Origin: an uncultured Methylomirabilota bacterium
GTDB lineage: Bacteria; Methylomirabilota; Methylomirabilia; Methylomirabilales; 2-02-FULL-66-22
DNA length: 64,000 bases
Assembly: GCA_963714585.1 (NCBI GenBank)
Contig: CAVQPC010000044.1
Location: 20,250 to 84,249, forward strand
Reading direction: 5' to 3'
A program made the position numbers and the translations under genes. Under the pieces are notes generated by a model. That model saw only the letters and a list, made by a program, of their open reading frames with translations. It made no database searches and was not told the DNA's origin. This document shows positions 5,737 through 61,390 of this stretch, one piece after another (the first letter of the stretch is position 1; each line of letters begins with the position of its first letter).

Positions 5737-5757
5737 GCCATGCTGGAGGGATCGAAC

Positions 5758-6051
5758 ATGGCGAAAGCGAGTGTGCTCGGGGTGCGGGAAGCGCGGGCGC
5801 GGTTCTCAGAGCTGGTAGAGAGCGCTCAGTTTCGTGGTCAGGAGTTCCTGATTGAGCGGGCTGGCAAGCCATTCGCCGTCATCATCGGGGCCGATCGGTA
5901 TGCCGAGATGCAGAGCGAGTTGGCCACGCTACAGGAAGAGCGGAGCGCGGATGGGCGGAAGCGGCTCCGCCGAGCCAAGGCGGACATCGAGGCCGGCCGA
6001 CTCACCCCGCATGACGTGATCTTCCAGCGACTGGCGACGAAGAAAAAGTAG
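5758..6051 (+). CDS. Type II antitoxin, Phd/YefM family
   Basis: MAKASVLGVREARARFSELVESAQFRGQEFLIERAGKPFAVIIGADRYAEM... is a typical Phd/YefM N-terminal fold signature. The stop abuts the start of the downstream toxin ORF. Confidence 0.85.
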   Translation: MAKASVLGVREARARFSELVESAQFRGQEFLIERAGKPFAVIIGADRYAEMQSELATLQEERSADGRKRLRRAKADIEAGRLTPHDVIFQRLATKKK

Positions 6052-6313
6052 ATGCCGCGGATCTACTGGACCTCGGAGGCATCCGGCCAGCTTGCGGAGC
6101 TGGACGTGCGCAGCCAGCAGGCCATCCGGCGCCGCGTGGACATTCTGGCCGACTTTCCGTATGCCGGGGTTGCCTTGAAGCGAGAGCTGGGAGGGATTCC
6201 GAAAGCTTTCCGCGGCCCCACTCCCCTGGATCATCATCTACACGGTGCGCGACCCGGACACGGTGATCATCGGCTACCTCCGCCACGCTCGCAGTCTGTG
6301 GGAATCTCGTTGA
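6052..6313 (+). pseudogene. ParE/RelE-family toxin with a +1 frame break (about 6215-6227)
   Basis: Frame 1 reads MPRIYWTSEASGQLAELDVRSQQAIRRRVDILADFPYAGVALKRELGGIPKAFRGP.... The conserved C-terminus WIIIYTVRDPDTVIIGYLRHARSLWESR* continues in frame 2, with stop at 6311-6313. Confidence 0.7.
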
Positions 6314-7456
6314 CGCTGTGTGCTCCTCTTTATCCAAGAATCCGGTAGGCCCCTCGTTCGGAGGGCGGCTCCCCATCGGTGTTGTGTTGGGCGACGACGA
6401 TGCCAAGCATCGCAAGTCCCGTTGGCGTGCCTTCTCGGGTGGACGGTTCATGCGGTAACTTGACGTACTTGGCAACGCAACCCGCGCGAACCCCTTCGGG
6501 CTCACGGCCTGAGTGCCGCGGGCCTGGTGGCGGAGAAGAAATGGAATGTTTCATAACCTACCTACGTCCCTTTCTATAAAGCGCTCTCGCCATTTGGCGA
6601 TCTTGGCCCGTTCCTGAGCGAGGAACTTTGCGAGCCCCGTTGCGTTCTCATCCAAAAGCTTGGTCGAAGACTTCAAAATTGAATCCGCCGATCAGCCGAC
6701 CTTCTGCGTAGGGGGGCGCGTCAGTCGCTCCCGCCAATAGGCGATTGCCCTCTCTCCGACCTTGGTCGCGGCCGCGGTTCGAGGCATCGCTCCTCCCGCC
6801 GATGCGCCCAGAGAGGACCCCGGGCCAAGGCCTCGGGGAGGGCCTCTTCCCGTCGCGAACGGTAGGCCGGGGAACTGGGACCAGCAGTCCTAGCATGAGC
6901 TGAGAACGGCACGCAATCCAGGGATTCTCATCCACCCCGCCCCTCCCTGATTCAATCCGTTCCATCCCCCTCCCACCAAAGGTCCTGTACTCCCCACCCC
7001 CCGTGTTACCGAAACGGGGCCTTCCTGCACCGCCTGGCGAAATAAGTGCGGCCGGCTGCCGGCGTGATTACCCTCCGGGCCGCTGGCAACCTCCGAAGGA
7101 TTGGACGCCGTTCAAAAACTGGGGGGCGGCAAGGGTCCTTCCCCCTTGACAGCACCGACCACCGGGGTCAGATCCAACCAGATCGCAGGTACAATCTCTA
7201 CTTGATACCGTCACACAACCAAACACCTGCCCCCGGGGGAGGTTGCAGCCATCTTGAATCCCGACAGTCTCCGCGTAGCCGCGAACCTGACCGCCAAGTC
7301 GCAGGACCCTTCCAAGCCAAGACCCAAGGCTTCCAGGCCCAGGCCACTTTCCACATCTCCACGGCCACTCACCCGCAAGCGCCCATCTGTGCGACCGCGG
7401 TGGAGGTAACAGAACCCAAAACCTTCCGACGTACCTAAGAACTACCGGAGCTTCTG

Positions 7457-7828
7457 ATGAAGGAAGCGACCGCCATAGCCCTTGCACTTCTTGCCGTCTT
7501 CCTATCCAGCCGGGTCGGTACCTTTAGGTTCCTTCTTCAAAGCCTAAATCACCGGTCGAAGTGCCCCTCCAACTACCTCATTCCCAACTTGCGGTTCCTC
7601 TTCTATCACCTTCCGCTCTTCCTGCTTCTTCTCGGATCAACACTCCTCATCGAGCGTTGGGCCTCCCGCTTCGCCGTCATCGGGCTCGTGCTGCTTGCAT
7701 TCCGCTATGGTGTCTACCATGCTCGCCGCGAAGCTATTCACTCGATGGCTGCCCATCTCGTCCACACGGAAGGTCTGACCGCGCAGCTGCGCTCATCGAA
7801 GCCAAGCACATCATTAAGACGACCGTAG
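7457..7828 (+). CDS. Hypothetical small membrane protein
   Basis: The 123-aa ORF has three hydrophobic stretches, and GGAG lies 6 nt before the ATG. It sits in a more A/T-rich, otherwise non-coding-looking stretch. No recognisable family. Confidence 0.3.
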   Translation: MKEATAIALALLAVFLSSRVGTFRFLLQSLNHRSKCPSNYLIPNLRFLFYHLPLFLLLLGSTLLIERWASRFAVIGLVLLAFRYGVYHARREAIHSMAAHLVHTEGLTAQLRSSKPSTSLRRP

Positions 7829-7993
7829 AAACGAACCGGTATCTTAGGCGAACCGGTTGCTGAAATGGAGGCCAGACCACGGAGGAGTGGACCACAATGG
7901 GAACACTGAGATGGTTCGATGGCGTTGAGTCCGTTAGGTAACCCCCCGGCTCTGCCGGGCGACTCCCAGAGTTTGACAGTTCCGGGAAAATAC

Positions 7994-8561
7994 GAAAGCC
8001 TCTCGGGCCGTGAACCGCTCAAAGCTCACGCAGTCCCAAGAGGCTTTCATGGACGACAGCGAGAGCTTAGCCCACACCAAGTGGGAGTGCAAGTACCATG
8101 TCGTGTGGATTCCCAAGTATCGGCGGAAAGCCCTGTATGCCGAGCTCCGCAAGTACCTGGGGCCGGTGTTCCGCGACCTCACCCAGCAACGCGAGTGTAC
8201 GGTGGAGGAGGGGCACCTCCAGGTGGACCACGTCCACATGTTGATCGCACTTCCCCCGAAGTATGCCGTGGCCCAAGTGATCGGGTACGTGAAGGGCAAG
8301 AGTGCCATTCACATTGCCCGGACGTACTTGGGCCGCCGGCAGAACTTCACGGGCCAGAGCTTTTGGGCCCGAGGATACTACGTCTCCACGGTGGGCCGCG
8401 ATGAGGCCACGATCCGGGAGTACATCAAGAAGCAAGAGGCGGAGGACCAGCGCCTCGACCAACTCAATATCTTCGCGCGGTAACGCCACCTTCAGGTGGC
8501 GGTAGGTTGTCCAACCGCTTTGAGCGGTTCACATCTTTCAAGCCACCGGCTTTGCCGGTGG
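7994..8561 (+). mobile_element. IS200/IS605-family element (tnpA only) with flanking hairpins
   Basis: A Y1-transposase gene is bracketed by a 13-bp inverted pair: GAACCGCTCAAAG (8012-8024) and CTTTGAGCGGTTC (8518-8530). The stem GAAAGCCTCT (7994-8003) / AGAGGCTTTC (8039-8048) ends at the ATG. Three hairpins follow the stop: GCCACC-ttca-GGTGGC 8485-8500, AACCGC-tttga-GCGGTT 8513-8529, CCACCGGC-ttt-GCCGGTGG 8543-8561. Exact element ends are not determined. Confidence 0.7.
8049..8483 (+). CDS. tnpA: IS200/IS605-family transposase TnpA (Y1 / HUH transposase)
   Basis: MDDSESLAHTKWECKYHVVWIPKYRRKALYAELRKYLGPVFRDLTQQRECTVEEGHLQVDHVHMLIALPPKYAVAQVIGYVKGKSAIHIAR...FWARGYYVSTVG carries the HUH motif (HVHML) and the catalytic-Tyr region typical of IS200 TnpA. 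Confidence 0.9.
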   Translation: MDDSESLAHTKWECKYHVVWIPKYRRKALYAELRKYLGPVFRDLTQQRECTVEEGHLQVDHVHMLIALPPKYAVAQVIGYVKGKSAIHIARTYLGRRQNFTGQSFWARGYYVSTVGRDEATIREYIKKQEAEDQRLDQLNIFAR

Positions 8562-8926
8562 TAATTTGACTGTTCACGTTGCAGTTTGCCGCTGTTCTTC
8601 CATGAAGATACCAGCGGCGGTCGCACCTTATACGCACCGGCTGCCCCACTGGTGATTCGGTGTACTAACCCTAAGTGCGGCCACGAACAGGACTATTACG
8701 GCCGCGCGCACAAGAAGTTCAGTGTGAAGTCGCAGTGACGCGGAACAGACTGCGCCGAGCCCGAAAAGCTCCAGCCCCATGGGCTGGAGATCGCCGATTA
8801 CGTCCCGAGGGAACTCCGCCCACTAGCGGAGCGTAGGCTCCCCGTGCTCACCCGCTCGCCCCCCAGAGTTAGGGCGCAATTCGATTACGCAAGCGAAAGC
8901 TTCACATTCCTGTGCCCAGACTCGCC

Positions 8927-9127
8927 CTAGCCGTTACACAAAGGTGTTGATGGTCTGATTGTCAAGAGGCATGGCAGCCCAATCTCTGCCTTCGGTTAGA
9001 TTGCTTTCGCACCACGACATGTTTGCAGAAGATTTCTTCCCTGGCCAGCTACTCCCATCCGAGCAAGCAAATCCGTGGATTACCGACGAAGTGAAGATGG
9101 TCGTCAACACCTTTGTGTAACGGCTAG
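8927..9127 (-). repeat. Inverted-repeat element, copy 1 (201 bp, perfect 24-bp terminal arms, 9-bp flanking duplication)
   Basis: Left arm CTAGCCGTTACACAAAGGTGTTGA (8927-8950) is the exact reverse complement of the right arm (9104-9127). It is flanked by AGACTCGCC at 8918-8926 and 9128-9136. Confidence 0.8.
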
Positions 9128-9554
9128 AGACTCGCCCTTCTTGGGGAGCCATTCTGGTCCGAACATCGACCCGCGTCTCCGGTCCCTGCGCACCCGTGGG
9201 GTGCGACTCCCTCCGATCCTCACCTGTCCACTAGTTCGCTCGCCGATGGGGTCCGACTTGCCCGCGCGCGCTCCTCTCCACATCCCTACCGTCTCCCTTC
9301 GTTTCGTCCGCGCACCAGGTGCATGGCCTTGCCTCCTGGGTCGGTCGGTCGCGCTCGGGCGCTCGTCCCCCCCGCGCCCTCGCTCCCCGTTTTCCGGTAC
9401 AAGCTGGGGTTTCCCGTTCACAAGCTCGAAACCCGCCGTCCAAGCTGCCCCAGGTTGCCCCGATCTTCCCTCCCCCCTGCCTGGGCTACATCCTTTTTTC
9501 GGCCCGGAACCCCACCTCATCGGTTTTGTATTTGTAGCCCCCCGTGTTACTGTG

Positions 9555-9828
9555 CTAGCCGTTCACCAAAGGTGTTGATGTCGCTCGGCGAATCGGGGGT
9601 AACCCGTGGATCTGCCTACCAGAAGAGGAATGATCAGTCTGGGGGAATATCTTCCGTAGCGTTGCCGGCACAGCGGAGTGACGCAACCCTTGGAAATGAA
9701 GGCGCAGACCCCCGGCCGTACCCCTTGACATTCTGGTGTATCAACACCCTTGGTGAACGGCTCCGTTCTCCCCAGGAACGATCCACACTATTCTGCGATA
9801 GCAGCGCCGGTCTTTCCATATGGTCTAG
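9555..9828 (+). repeat. Inverted-repeat element, copy 2 (opposite orientation; arms at 9555-9578 and 9741-9762, extra 66 bp, 9-bp flanking duplication)
   Basis: CTAGCCGTTCACCAAAGGTGTTGA (9555-9578) pairs with TCAACACCCTTGGTGAACGGCT (9741-9762). GTTACTGTG abuts CTAG on both sides (9546-9554 and 9829-9837, after a second CTAG at 9825-9828). The first ~75 internal nt are homologous to the reverse complement of copies 1 and 3. Confidence 0.7.
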
Positions 9829-9989
9829 GTTACTGTGACGGAGGCACTAGGCGGTTCGCACGTCGATTCTACTTCCCAAGTCACACGCCACTGACAATAA
9901 TGCGCTTAAGTCGCCGCTCAGGAGGCACTTCGCTCTACTTGCAAGAAACATCCAACGAGCGTCGAGAACGCGGCCGTGAAGGAGATCAC

Positions 9990-10766
9990 ATGGAACACAC
10001 CGTTGTGGCACCGTCGAAGGCGTTGAAGGCGAGGGTGCGTAGCCAGAAATTCTGGGATGCTCTCCGGCAGTGGTGGATCCGACTCGCCGTCGCGCCGGTC
10101 CGTGGCGTGCGGAACAGTAGTCTCCGTGGACTTGAACGCAGGGTCTGCTATGTGCTCGTCTGGCTCAGGCGAACGTCACTTCATTACGCGATTGTCGAGT
10201 GCTTCCCGGCTGATGGGCGTCAGCAACGGAAGCGGCGCGACTTCGTGGTGGAGTTTTTGGTGATTTGCCAGTTTGCCATTACTATTGTTGCCGTTTGGAT
10301 TCCTGACGCATGGTTGCGCGCGGCAGTGGGCGCCACGGCTTACCTGCTATTCGTGCTTTATCTAAGTCTCCTCAACATTCTCTTCCTGACCAACGTGCCG
10401 GCAGTCAATGCACCCACAACCTCCGTCTCGCGATCACTGCTCCTGTTGTTTATTAACCTGTTGCAGGTGGTCATCGGTTGCAGTGTCTTCTACCGCTCCG
10501 CCCTGGGTCTCTGTCCTTGGCAAGCGATCTTCGGAGCTTTCCTGGTTTTAGGCACCCTCGGTCGTCCAGACAACCCGTCTGCCAGCCATACCCTGCTTGT
10601 GCCGCTCCAAGTGCTCCTCGATGTAGTGTTGTTAGTTTTTGTTGTCAGCATCTTCGCCGGCCGTTTCCCACTTCGCCTGCAAGAACGAAAACGCCGACGA
10701 GCTGAACGACGGGGGAATTATCGCCAGGATCGCCGGTTAGCTCGCATCGTTAGCTCCTCACGCTAG
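9990..10766 (+). CDS. Hypothetical multi-pass membrane protein (noticeably more A/T-rich than neighbours)
   Basis: The in-frame ATG at 9990 is preceded by GAAGGAG. The 258 aa contain several long hydrophobic segments (FVVEFLVICQFAITIVAVWI..., LLLLFINLLQVVIGCSVFY..., LLVPLQVLLDVVLLVFVVSIFAG). No recognisable family. Confidence 0.5.
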   Translation: MEHTVVAPSKALKARVRSQKFWDALRQWWIRLAVAPVRGVRNSSLRGLERRVCYVLVWLRRTSLHYAIVECFPADGRQQRKRRDFVVEFLVICQFAITIVAVWIPDAWLRAAVGATAYLLFVLYLSLLNILFLTNVPAVNAPTTSVSRSLLLLFINLLQVVIGCSVFYRSALGLCPWQAIFGAFLVLGTLGRPDNPSASHTLLVPLQVLLDVVLLVFVVSIFAGRFPLRLQERKRRRAERRGNYRQDRRLARIVSSSR

Positions 10767-10799
10767 CGTAAGCCTCTCGTTCCAGTGCCCAGATTCGCC

Positions 10800-11008
10800 C
10801 TAGGCGTTGCACAAAGGTGTTGATACTCGAAGCTGAAGACGTGCGTTCTGGGGATTTTCGCAATCAGTATCACGGGTTACATCTCTCCCGGGCGACGGGA
10901 AAACTGCGGGAGAGTTTTCCCCTGACTGACCGTTCCCCTTTTGGTAAGCAGATCGCGGCCTTACCCGCGAATCGCAGATCAAGATCAACACCTTTGTGCA
11001 ACGGCTAG
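10800..11008 (-). repeat. Inverted-repeat element, copy 3 (209 bp, 23/24 arms, 9-bp flanking duplication)
   Basis: CTAGGCGTTGCACAAAGGTGTTGA (10800-10823) pairs with TCAACACCTTTGTGCAACGGCTAG (10985-11008). It is flanked by AGATTCGCC at 10791-10799 and 11009-11017. The outer flanks are homologous to those of copy 1. Confidence 0.8.
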
Positions 11009-11112
11009 AGATTCGCCCCTCTTGGGGAGCCAAGCAGGGCTCGAACTCCGGGTCTCATCTGAGGCGTGTGCCTGAAGAGCCTTCCCCTGGACGGCACGAT
11101 GCGGCGGTTGGA

Positions 11113-12129
11113 TTACAGCCGTCGGCCGGCCGCCTGGACGAACGGGGCGATCTCCTGCATCAACTGCTGGAACATGGCGGGCTTCAGCGATTGGATGCCG
11201 TCGCTCACGGCCATTTCGGGGCGGACGTGGACCTCGACCATGAGGCCGTCGGCGCCGCAGGCGATCCCGGCCTTGGCCATGGGGATCACGTAATCCCAGT
11301 GGCCGGTCCCATGGCTGGGGTCCACGATCACCGGAAGGTGGCTGAGCTTCTTGATAACCGGAACAGCATTCAGGTCCAAGGTGAAGCGGGTCGCCGTTTC
11401 GAAGGTCCGGATGCCCCGCTCGCACAGGACGACGTTGTAGTTCCCCTCTGAGAGGATGTACTCGGCCGCCATCAGGAACTCCTGAATGGTCGAGGCCATG
11501 CCCCGCTTCAAGAGCACCGGCTTCCCCGTCTCTCCCACGCGCTTCAGCAGGGCGAAGTTCTGCATGTTGCGGGCGCCGACCTGGAGCATGTCGGCGGTCT
11601 CGGCCACGAGGTCCACGTCCTCCGGCTTCAAGACCTCCGTGACGATCGGAAGCCCCGTCTCGTCACGGGCGGCGGCCAGAAGCCGCAGGCCCTCCTCGCC
11701 CAAGCCCTGAAACGCATAGGGGGAGGTGCGGGGTTTGAACGCCCCGCCCCGCAGCATGCTGGCCCCCGCCTCCTTCACGAACTTGGCGGTTTCCTGGAGT
11801 TGGCCGTGGTTCTCCACGGTGCAGGGGCCCGCCATGATGACGACGCGCTCGCCGCCGATCTCCACATCCCGAACTCTGACCAGCGTGGGGGCGGGTTTGA
11901 ACTCACGGCTGGCCAGCTTGAAGGGCTGGAGGATGGGGACGACGCTCTCGACGCCCGGCATGACCTCGAGGGACTGGAGGCGGGCCTTGCCGCGCTCATC
12001 CCCCACGGCGCCGATCACCGTGCGCTGCTTGCCCCAGATCACGTGAGACTGATAGCCGAGCTCCTCCACGGTCCGGATGACATCGTGCACCTGTTCTTTC
12101 GGAGCGGTCCCCTTCATAACGATGATCAT
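11113..12129 (-). CDS. aroF: 3-deoxy-7-phosphoheptulonate (DAHP) synthase, class I-beta with N-terminal regulatory (ACT/FL-like) domain
   Basis: [33 protein letters not shown]...[51 protein letters not shown]...[38 protein letters not shown]...[10 protein letters not shown]. The start is taken at the internal ATG 12129 of ORF 11113..12387. Confidence 0.92.
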
Positions 12130-61295: not shown

Positions 61296-61390
61296 GGAGG
61301 CGGAGTGGGCCTGGTGGCCCTCCTGGTCTTCAAAACCAGCGTGGCGCCTAACCCGCGCTAGGTGGGTTCGATTCCCACACGCCTCCGCCA
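61296..61390 (+). tRNA. selC: tRNA-Sec (anticodon UCA)
   Basis: The 95-nt gene is GGAGGCGG AG TGGGCC-TGGT-GGCCC.. CTGGT-CTTCAAA-ACCAG [long variable arm TGGCGC-CTAACCC-GCGCTA] GTGGG-TTCGATT-CCCAC ACGCCTCC G CCA. It has a UCA anticodon, an extended D-stem with a 4-nt loop, a long extra arm and a 7(+1)/5 acceptor/T stack. Confidence 0.85.

Follow-up and report, generated by a model that had tools for sequence, protein, structure and literature searches.

What kind of element carries terminal inverted arms in which a change on one side is repeated on the other? The question is raised by three short elements between positions 8918 and 11017 of a 64,000-nucleotide stretch of contig CAVQPC010000044.1, from an uncultured Methylomirabilota bacterium; this whole stretch is referred to below as the window. 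A first-pass annotation, made from the letters of the window, had noted that the differences between copies are mirrored in the partner arm and had read this as fitting selection for pairing, in an RNA or single-stranded DNA (ssDNA) hairpin, at least as well as conserved transposase-binding sites. We conclude instead, with a probability of about 0.9, that the three elements are miniature inverted-repeat transposable elements (MITEs), non-autonomous deletion derivatives of an insertion sequence (IS) whose complete members measure 1.9-2.3 kb. They are short and carry no transposase coding sequence, they have terminal inverted repeats (TIRs) and a duplication fixed at 9 bp, they belong to a set of multiple copies with paralogous empty sites, and autonomous elements exist that have the same ends and duplicate the same length of target. 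The elements and the duplications around them are laid out as follows.

8927-9127, minus strand: MITE copy 1, 201 bp, ACA arm variant; arms at 8927-8950 and 9104-9127, complementary at 24/24 positions
8918-8926 and 9128-9136: target duplication of copy 1, AGACTCGCC, 9/9 exact, read from the sequence
9555-9762, plus strand: body of MITE copy 2, 208 bp (plus 62 bp of foreign DNA), CAC arm variant; arms at 9555-9578 and 9741-9762
9546-9554 and 9829-9837: target duplication of copy 2, GTTACTGTG, exact over 9 bp, read from the sequence
10800-11008, minus strand: MITE copy 3, 209 bp, GCA arm variant; arms at 10800-10823 and 10985-11008, with arm position 5 mismatched
10791-10799 and 11009-11017: target duplication of copy 3, AGATTCGCC, 9/9 exact, read from the sequence

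Each MITE is given the strand that runs colinear with the left, transposase-proximal end of the full-length IS; copies 1 and 3 share an orientation and copy 2 is inverted. Exact 9-bp direct repeats flank all three copies, as first proposed, and together with the TIRs they mark insertions of the cut-and-paste type. The coordinates and arms first given for copies 1 and 3 also stand. The arms are inverted repeats of 24 bp that end in CTAG, and the ACA, GCA and CAC variants are the letters at arm positions 10-12. The arm of copy 1 reads CTAGCCGTTACACAAAGGTGTTGA; the arms of copy 3 are complementary at 23/24 positions (24/25 aligned positions match, or 96%) and carry G at position 10 on both sides; both arms of copy 2 contain TTCACC, with a complementarity of 22-23/24. 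A search for the arm 24-mer at up to three mismatches returned five matches within the 64 kb and none in 100 shuffles. The arms are conserved far better than the interiors, which in the three window copies are 60-69% identical to one another and to everything else retrieved; copies 2 and 3 reach 72% identity over 159 nt. Several MITE lineages also have a TTGACA hexamer about 15-17 nt inward of the right arm (CCTCTTGACAATCAG..; examples lie at window positions 8951-8975 in copy 1 and 9722-9740 in copy 2), which could be an outward-facing -35 box, and no matching -10 box is evident.

The full-length relatives come from two scans. The first compared the arm pattern with one genome per prokaryotic species, holding every arm position fixed except 5 and 10-12, and returned at least 80 loci. 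The second searched metagenomes with the protein alignment alone as the query, and the ends of the elements were then located without the arm pattern. Loci with the arm pattern are strongly enriched in metagenome-assembled genomes of NC10/Methylomirabilota and are also present in beta- and zetaproteobacteria; a single 5.6-Mb genome (OY970067.1) supplies more than 25 of them and contains at least 18 copies of one short family of 201 bp. Two arms could be recognized in 39 elements among the 80 loci listed, and a perfect 9-bp duplication surrounds 32 of these 39. Most elements measure 176-222 bp, and several measure 1.9-2.3 kb and contain a single long open reading frame (ORF).

These long elements carry the arms of the window copies, and they were found in genomes of NC10/Methylomirabilota and of proteobacteria as well as in metagenomes. 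One of them (L026:60-2018; L numbers are our handles for loci) has ACA arms identical to those of copy 1 at 24/24 positions on each side and a 9/9 duplication, and another (L022:1511-3421) has GCA arms, as in copy 3, again with a 9/9 duplication. L037 and L066 are additional full-length elements of the same family, and the protein-only scan added L081, with ACA arms, as well as L082 and L084, which have the CAC arms of copy 2. Every arm variant in the window thus has an autonomous counterpart: L026 and L081 for ACA, L022 for GCA, L082 and L084 for CAC. The consensus arm of the full-length elements is 24-25 bp long and reads CTAGCCGTT-NNN-CAAAGGTGTTGA, and their target duplications are of 9 bp. 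The first-pass annotation had itself allowed that an autonomous IS with identical ends would turn these elements into ordinary MITEs, and such an IS exists. Some loci hold incomplete or compound forms of the IS. At L022:3431-5345, a second copy, 72% identical to the first, abuts it in such a way that one 9-bp duplication is common to both; this second copy has no right arm, and after it come about 65 nt and a complete copy of T1, a host repeat described below. At L002 and L025, a left arm and an intact gene are present and the right arm is absent.

The full-length elements also show the mirrored changes from which the hairpin idea had started. In these elements a protein gene lies between the arms, which are about 1.9 kb from each other, and in 22 distinct pairs of ends ascertained through the protein we counted 86 departures from the consensus that are mirrored, 24 that affect one arm and 4 that differ between the arms. 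The left and right arms of one full-length element are 94.7% identical, compared with 75% for left arms across elements, and arm similarity follows transposase similarity (Spearman 0.59, permutation p=0.001). In this protein-based set, mirrored variation is seen at arm positions 2, 5, 8 and 10-18; its confinement to positions 10-12 in the set from the first scan is partly a product of how the pattern was designed. The mirrored differences among the window copies are therefore a legacy of three IS lineages and carry no information on a MITE hairpin.

This bears directly on the alternative that the elements are functional structured RNAs or ssDNA hairpins, with a 22-24-bp helix kept by selection for pairing and with truly compensatory changes. 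Such a view can appeal to the strong conservation of the arms relative to interiors only 60-69% alike, and to the 14 distinct short elements, in which 93.8% of arm cells pair and changes on both sides occur in 17 cells, when shuffles give 7.2 and none of 500 reaches 17. In those same 14 elements, however, the two-sided changes are limited to 4 of the 24 pairs (positions 2, 10, 11 and 12), and 21 cells are unpaired and uncompensated; 6 of the 14 lack pairing at position 5, and 3 at position 16. Two arm positions are also unpaired in the most prolific family, the one with at least 18 copies of 201 bp in OY970067.1. A helix under pairing selection would be expected to show compensation spread along its length, few unpaired positions, and no such pattern in autonomous elements, and we found the opposite on all three counts. 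The copies moreover occupy unrelated contexts, with target duplications, and Rfam returned nothing relevant, either in a scan of the window at the gathering threshold or at E<=10 on positions 8700-11200 and an empty T1. The full-length elements already largely refute the hairpin, and we consider it very improbable.

Where the elements insert provides a second line of evidence. All three sit inside short host repeats, which we call T1 and T2.

8876-8926 and about 9128-9185, minus strand: T1 around copy 1, recognized by repeat homology, limits approximate
10748-10799 and about 11009-11065, minus strand: T1 around copy 3, recognized by repeat homology, limits approximate
9520-9554, resuming at 9838-9850, plus strand: T2 around copy 2, ..TGTATTTGTAGCCCCCCGT/GTTACTGTG/ACGGAGG.., recognized by repeat homology
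6980-7025, plus strand: empty paralogous T2, CCCCCCGTGTTACCGAAACGGGGC, an uninterrupted hairpin repeat and vacant target of the copy-2 lineage

T1 is a repeat of about 75-130 nt (..GTTCGAGTCCTGCATGGCTCCCCAAGAGGGGCGAATCT/GGGCACTGGGAGGAGAGG..) that is conserved across NC10 genomes and metagenomes. Copies 1 and 3 occupy the identical 9-bp position within it, and their flanks are homologous over 65 nt at 86% and over 41 nt at 83%. The first-pass annotation had seen these homologous flanks and had left two explanations for them, a target that is itself a repeat or a joint duplication of element and flanks; the first is the one that holds. The same 9-bp site of T1 is occupied elsewhere by full-length elements (L022, L026 and L081) and by MITEs of several lineages (L023, L024, L036, L059, L061 and L078), and uninterrupted T1 is found at L022:5348-5418 and L081:439-510. 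Elements of the CAC lineage (copy 2, L031, L032, L054, L055 and L057) lie in the loop of T2, CCCCCCGT/GTTACTGNG/ACGGGGG. The empty T1 and T2 sites that we found are paralogous sites.

A joint duplication would make copies 1 and 3 a single element that was copied along with its flanks of about 80 bp, and not two independent insertions. Their common orientation, their homologous flanks and target duplications one base apart (AGACTCGCC vs AGATTCGCC) all agree with it. Yet the interiors of the two copies are at most about 62% alike while their flanks are 83-86% alike, and their arm variants differ (ACA vs GCA), each being equal to that of a different full-length IS. In addition, other family members have taken the same 9 bp of T1 in other genomes, and T1 also occurs uninterrupted. 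Given interiors more diverged than the flanks and arms of different lineages, we prefer two independent hits on a hot spot and regard the duplication of one element as improbable.

The preference extends beyond these two repeats. Of 34 unique sites, 28 have a CCC no more than 16 nt left of the duplication and a GGG no more than 16 nt right of it, a combination present at 6.2% of control positions (p=1.5e-28), although several T1 and T2 sites are paralogous and the 34 sites are thus not fully independent. The proteobacterial copies are located in terminator-like hairpins. In this respect the family resembles IS1397 and ISKpn1, which target the loops of repetitive extragenic palindromic (REP) sequences and bacterial interspersed mosaic elements (BIMEs): here too MITEs and IS insert at a fixed position of short host repeats (T1 and T2), and in proteobacteria at the center of terminator-like hairpins. 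It differs from them in its transposase family and its 9-bp duplication, and in that many NC10 sites are only a CCC..[9 bp]..GGG dyad and lack a full hairpin.

The nature of T1 itself was considered separately. Copies of T1 are often in tandem orientation, 1-4 kb apart. Its resemblance to a transfer RNA (tRNA) or transfer-messenger RNA remnant (GTTCGAGTCC...CCA) was not borne out, as ARAGORN found nothing in 7 loci and no T-stem could be drawn. As a structured RNA it yields 8 weak pairs with RNAalifold, no covariation and no Rfam match, and as an integron attC-like site it has, on inspection, GTT.../...AAC motifs in the wrong order and no extended pairing. An element 3' of genes is the last of these candidates, and an ORF lies upstream on the same strand in only about half of the cases.

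Copy 2 required a correction. It had been described as a 274-bp element closed by a helix; the TTCACC in both arms and the inverted orientation are as described, whereas the helix closes at 9555-9762/9764, and what follows belongs to another mobile element. The right arm ends in ..AACGGCT followed by CC and not AG, and CTAG with the second GTTACTGTG (9825-9837) is displaced 62 bp beyond the end of that arm.

9763-9824, minus strand: 62-bp remnant of an IS110-family element, its transposase-upstream end, lying between ..AACGGCT and the terminal (CT)AG of copy 2
9825-9828, no strand assigned: displaced terminal CTAG of copy 2, read from the sequence

The 62 bp are 81-85% identical to L031:5624-5691, which lies upstream of an IS110-family transposase gene. 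That gene is part of a complete IS110-type element (L031:4100-5687), whose ORF matches PF01548 and PF02371, and the 62-bp insert can be assigned to the IS110 family through its homology to this element, predicted to encode a DEDD transposase of that family. The complete element holds the same position, between ..AACGGCT and the terminal AG of a MITE of the CAC lineage, and GTTACTGCG, the T2 duplication, brackets the whole structure. The other arm of the same MITE contains a 17-bp remnant of the IS110 type at the mirror position (L031:2592-2611). With a remnant in the window and a complete counterpart at the same site in L031, copy 2 is therefore best described as a MITE that was struck at its terminus by an invader later mostly deleted. 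The IS110-family element has inverted ends of its own (ATATGGAAAGnCGGCC) and was seen at the same terminal CTAG position in CAC-lineage MITEs of two genomes. From these two loci, it looks like an IS110-type element that targets the arms of the IS family to which the MITEs belong. Members of the IS110 family such as IS4321 and IS5075 use the terminal inverted repeats of other transposons, those of the Tn21 type, as insertion sites. The case here is alike in that an IS110-family element has entered the terminal inverted repeat of another element, in L031 and in copy 2, and it differs in comprising only two loci.

How the short elements arose from the long ones can be followed in a MAFFT alignment, in which copy 1 enters on the minus strand, copy 2 on the plus strand and copy 3 on the minus strand. 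The left ~110 nt of the MITEs are colinear with the transposase-proximal ends of the IS, that is, with the 5' leader and the first codons. The shared order is the arm, then a conserved hairpin region of the IS (ACAATCCCCTT..AAGGGGATTGT), then a block ..GGGG.AA..TCTTCYGYAG.. within which, in full-length elements, the transposase ORF starts. The first ~75 internal nucleotides, which had been singled out as conserved, correspond to this colinear region. The derivation of the MITEs from the IS is old. The left ends of full-length IS (L026:85-135, L022:1550-1600, L037, L066 and L081-L113) form a hairpin, ACAATCCCCTT-N10-12-AAGGGGATTGT, which either lies just ahead of the likely ribosome-binding site and start codon or overlaps them, and in which lineages differ by compensatory changes. 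This leader hairpin probably controls translation of the transposase; in the MITEs it is degenerate.

The transposase of the parent family is a single ORF of 568-625 aa, with at least 955 homologues in the protein collection. Pfam domains are absent from all the homologues listed (at least 955), whose names are "hypothetical" or "transposase-like"; a Pfam search with the family transposase gave nothing significant. NCBIfam recognizes the N-terminus only: IS1_IS1595_Zn at 28.7 bits (cut-off 28), and transpos_IS1 over model positions 12-85 at 33-34 bits against a cut-off of 100 (E 2.5e-8). By hhalign, aa 104-168 align with E. coli InsA (probability 83.6%, E 8e-6). For the catalytic part, conservation and the predicted succession of strands and helices suggest, as no more than a guess, D202, D360 or D362, and D488 of the family transposase P0001 as candidate acidic residues. 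In distant relatives from plasmids the transpos_IS1 match extends to model positions 109-115 only. These relatives, which bear the annotation "hypothetical protein" or "insertion element protein", include some from plasmids of Pseudomonas, Polaromonas and Rhizobium. A 650-aa relative with 24% identity, annotated "insertion element protein", directly adjoins the trimethoprim-resistance gene dfrG (L162, CP156024.1 9069-11021), and this dfrG-adjacent relative is also present on about 100 plasmids of Enterococcus and Staphylococcus. In the literature on ISMhu11, on MITEs of Methylomirabilis and on the dfrG-linked "insertion element protein", we found no description of this IS family.

These results bear on what had been said of the parent. 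An IS4-like element had been proposed: in the IS4 family (IS10, IS50) termini begin with CT and the duplication is of 9 bp, and both features are shared by the elements studied here. Nevertheless, no IS4-type domain is found in Pfam or NCBIfam, even at E<=1, and the sole match to an IS family in NCBIfam is to IS1, at an N-terminus that resembles InsA. We give a parent from the IS4 family next to no credence.

The comparison with IS1 is closer and still incomplete. IS1 elements produce duplications of 8-9 bp, have terminal inverted repeats of about 23-24 bp that begin with GGT.., and express insA and insB joined by a frameshift. The parent shares with them an N-terminus homologous to InsA, with a zinc finger and a helix-turn-helix, along with its 9-bp duplication and its arms of 24-25 bp. 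It differs in being 1.9-2.3 kb long with one ORF, when IS1A of E. coli K-12 has 768 bp and overlapping insA1 and insB1; in lacking detectable similarity to InsB and remaining below the cut-off of the family model; and in ends that read CTAG/CAAG.. and not GGT... The DNA-binding part, the duplication and the arm length of the parent are IS1-like, but in size, gene structure and similarity of the catalytic domain it falls outside the IS1 family.

Several results weigh against deriving the three elements from this IS family, or against parts of that account. The window contains neither a full-length copy nor a homologue of the transposase (tblastn with the family transposase gave nothing below E=0.5), which agrees with the first-pass annotation, and the full-length partners all come from genomes or metagenomes other than the window's own. 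When MITE interiors were compared with full-length IS by BLAST, similarity stopped at the arms; the colinearity described above depends on short conserved blocks in the MAFFT alignment, and nothing in the right ends of the IS sampled corresponds to the right ~60 nt of the MITEs. As to the protein, hhalign against InsB of IS1 gave no match, a profile search of the PDB gave only C2H2 zinc fingers and no transposase, and the AlphaFold2 model, built from a 24-sequence alignment, was unusable (mean predicted local distance difference test score 47.5). At the target sites, to the incomplete independence mentioned above is added a test for contiguous stems in hairpin targets that was not significant (p=0.076).

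We infer that the MITEs are mobilized in trans by the parent transposase, and the same holds for the protein domain that reads the arms and for the catalytic chemistry. A full-length copy elsewhere in the genome would supply the transposase in trans, and this protein would bind both arms, probably through its zinc-finger and helix-turn-helix N-terminus similar to InsA of IS1. Integration would follow through cuts with a 9-bp stagger. Preferred sites are those in which these 9 bp have a C-run to their left and a G-run to their right, and this preference makes hot spots of T1, of T2 and of the terminator-like hairpin loops of proteobacteria. The three copies belong to three lineages, their ACA, GCA and CAC arm variants being those of three full-length lineages, and their differences are mirrored in the partner arm because they descend from these separate lineages. 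Copy 2 was later struck within its terminal CTAG, and 62 bp of the invading IS110-family element are left.

A further-reaching proposal can be put forward only tentatively, and we think it less likely than not to be right in full. The parent might be an undescribed IS family, a deep branch tied to IS1 only by its N-terminus, with a transposase of about 570 aa whose catalytic part lies outside the curated models and which inserts site-specifically at dyads or hairpins (T1 and T2). The variable triplet, set in arms that are otherwise invariant, might be a specificity code that co-evolves with the transposase and bars cross-mobilization between the lineages, MITEs included, that share a genome, and the IS110-type element might hunt these arms.

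Among described MITEs, MITEAba12 offers a useful comparison. It has 113 bp, TIRs of 16 bp, a 9-bp target duplication and ISAba12 as its proposed parent (PMC6382973). Like it, the elements studied here are short and without transposase, their inverted repeats recur in a full-length IS, they duplicate 9 bp of target, and a genome contains several of them. They differ in size (about 200-220 bp), in their 24-bp arms, in interiors that are 60-69% alike, in the presence of three lineages within 2 kb, and in having a parent from another, uncurated IS family; their mobility is inferred and not observed.

The three copies lie within a stretch of lower G+C content, at about 6000-11100 of the window, which contains a Phd/YefM antitoxin gene, an IS200-type TnpA and small ORFs, and which adjoins a DAHP synthase gene. 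After the antitoxin gene comes a 98-aa ORF that has no Pfam match and is possibly the toxin (window 5740-6348). The IS200-type Y1 transposase gene, at 8010-8483, plays no role in the three elements. Inside the DAHP synthase ORF, ARAGORN predicts an 88-nt tRNA-Arg(tct) (11624-11711, minus strand), which has no Rfam support and is probably a false positive. A tRNA-Sec at 61296-61390 is supported by Rfam (76.8 bits).

As a result of this analysis, a candidate structured RNA is removed and the elements are filed as MITEs. This is of use for the annotation of NC10/Methylomirabilota genomes, in which these repeats break assemblies and adjoin genes. Mirrored changes in the inverted repeats of mobile elements imitate RNA covariation, which calls for caution in RNA discovery based on covariation. 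Two by-products are a widespread transposase family that Pfam and NCBIfam do not recognize and that is mostly annotated "hypothetical protein", and a clear specificity of insertion for short host repeats and terminator-like hairpins. The interest that remains lies in the uncurated, IS1-related parent family, in its site-specific use of host repeats and hairpins, and in the T1 repeat.

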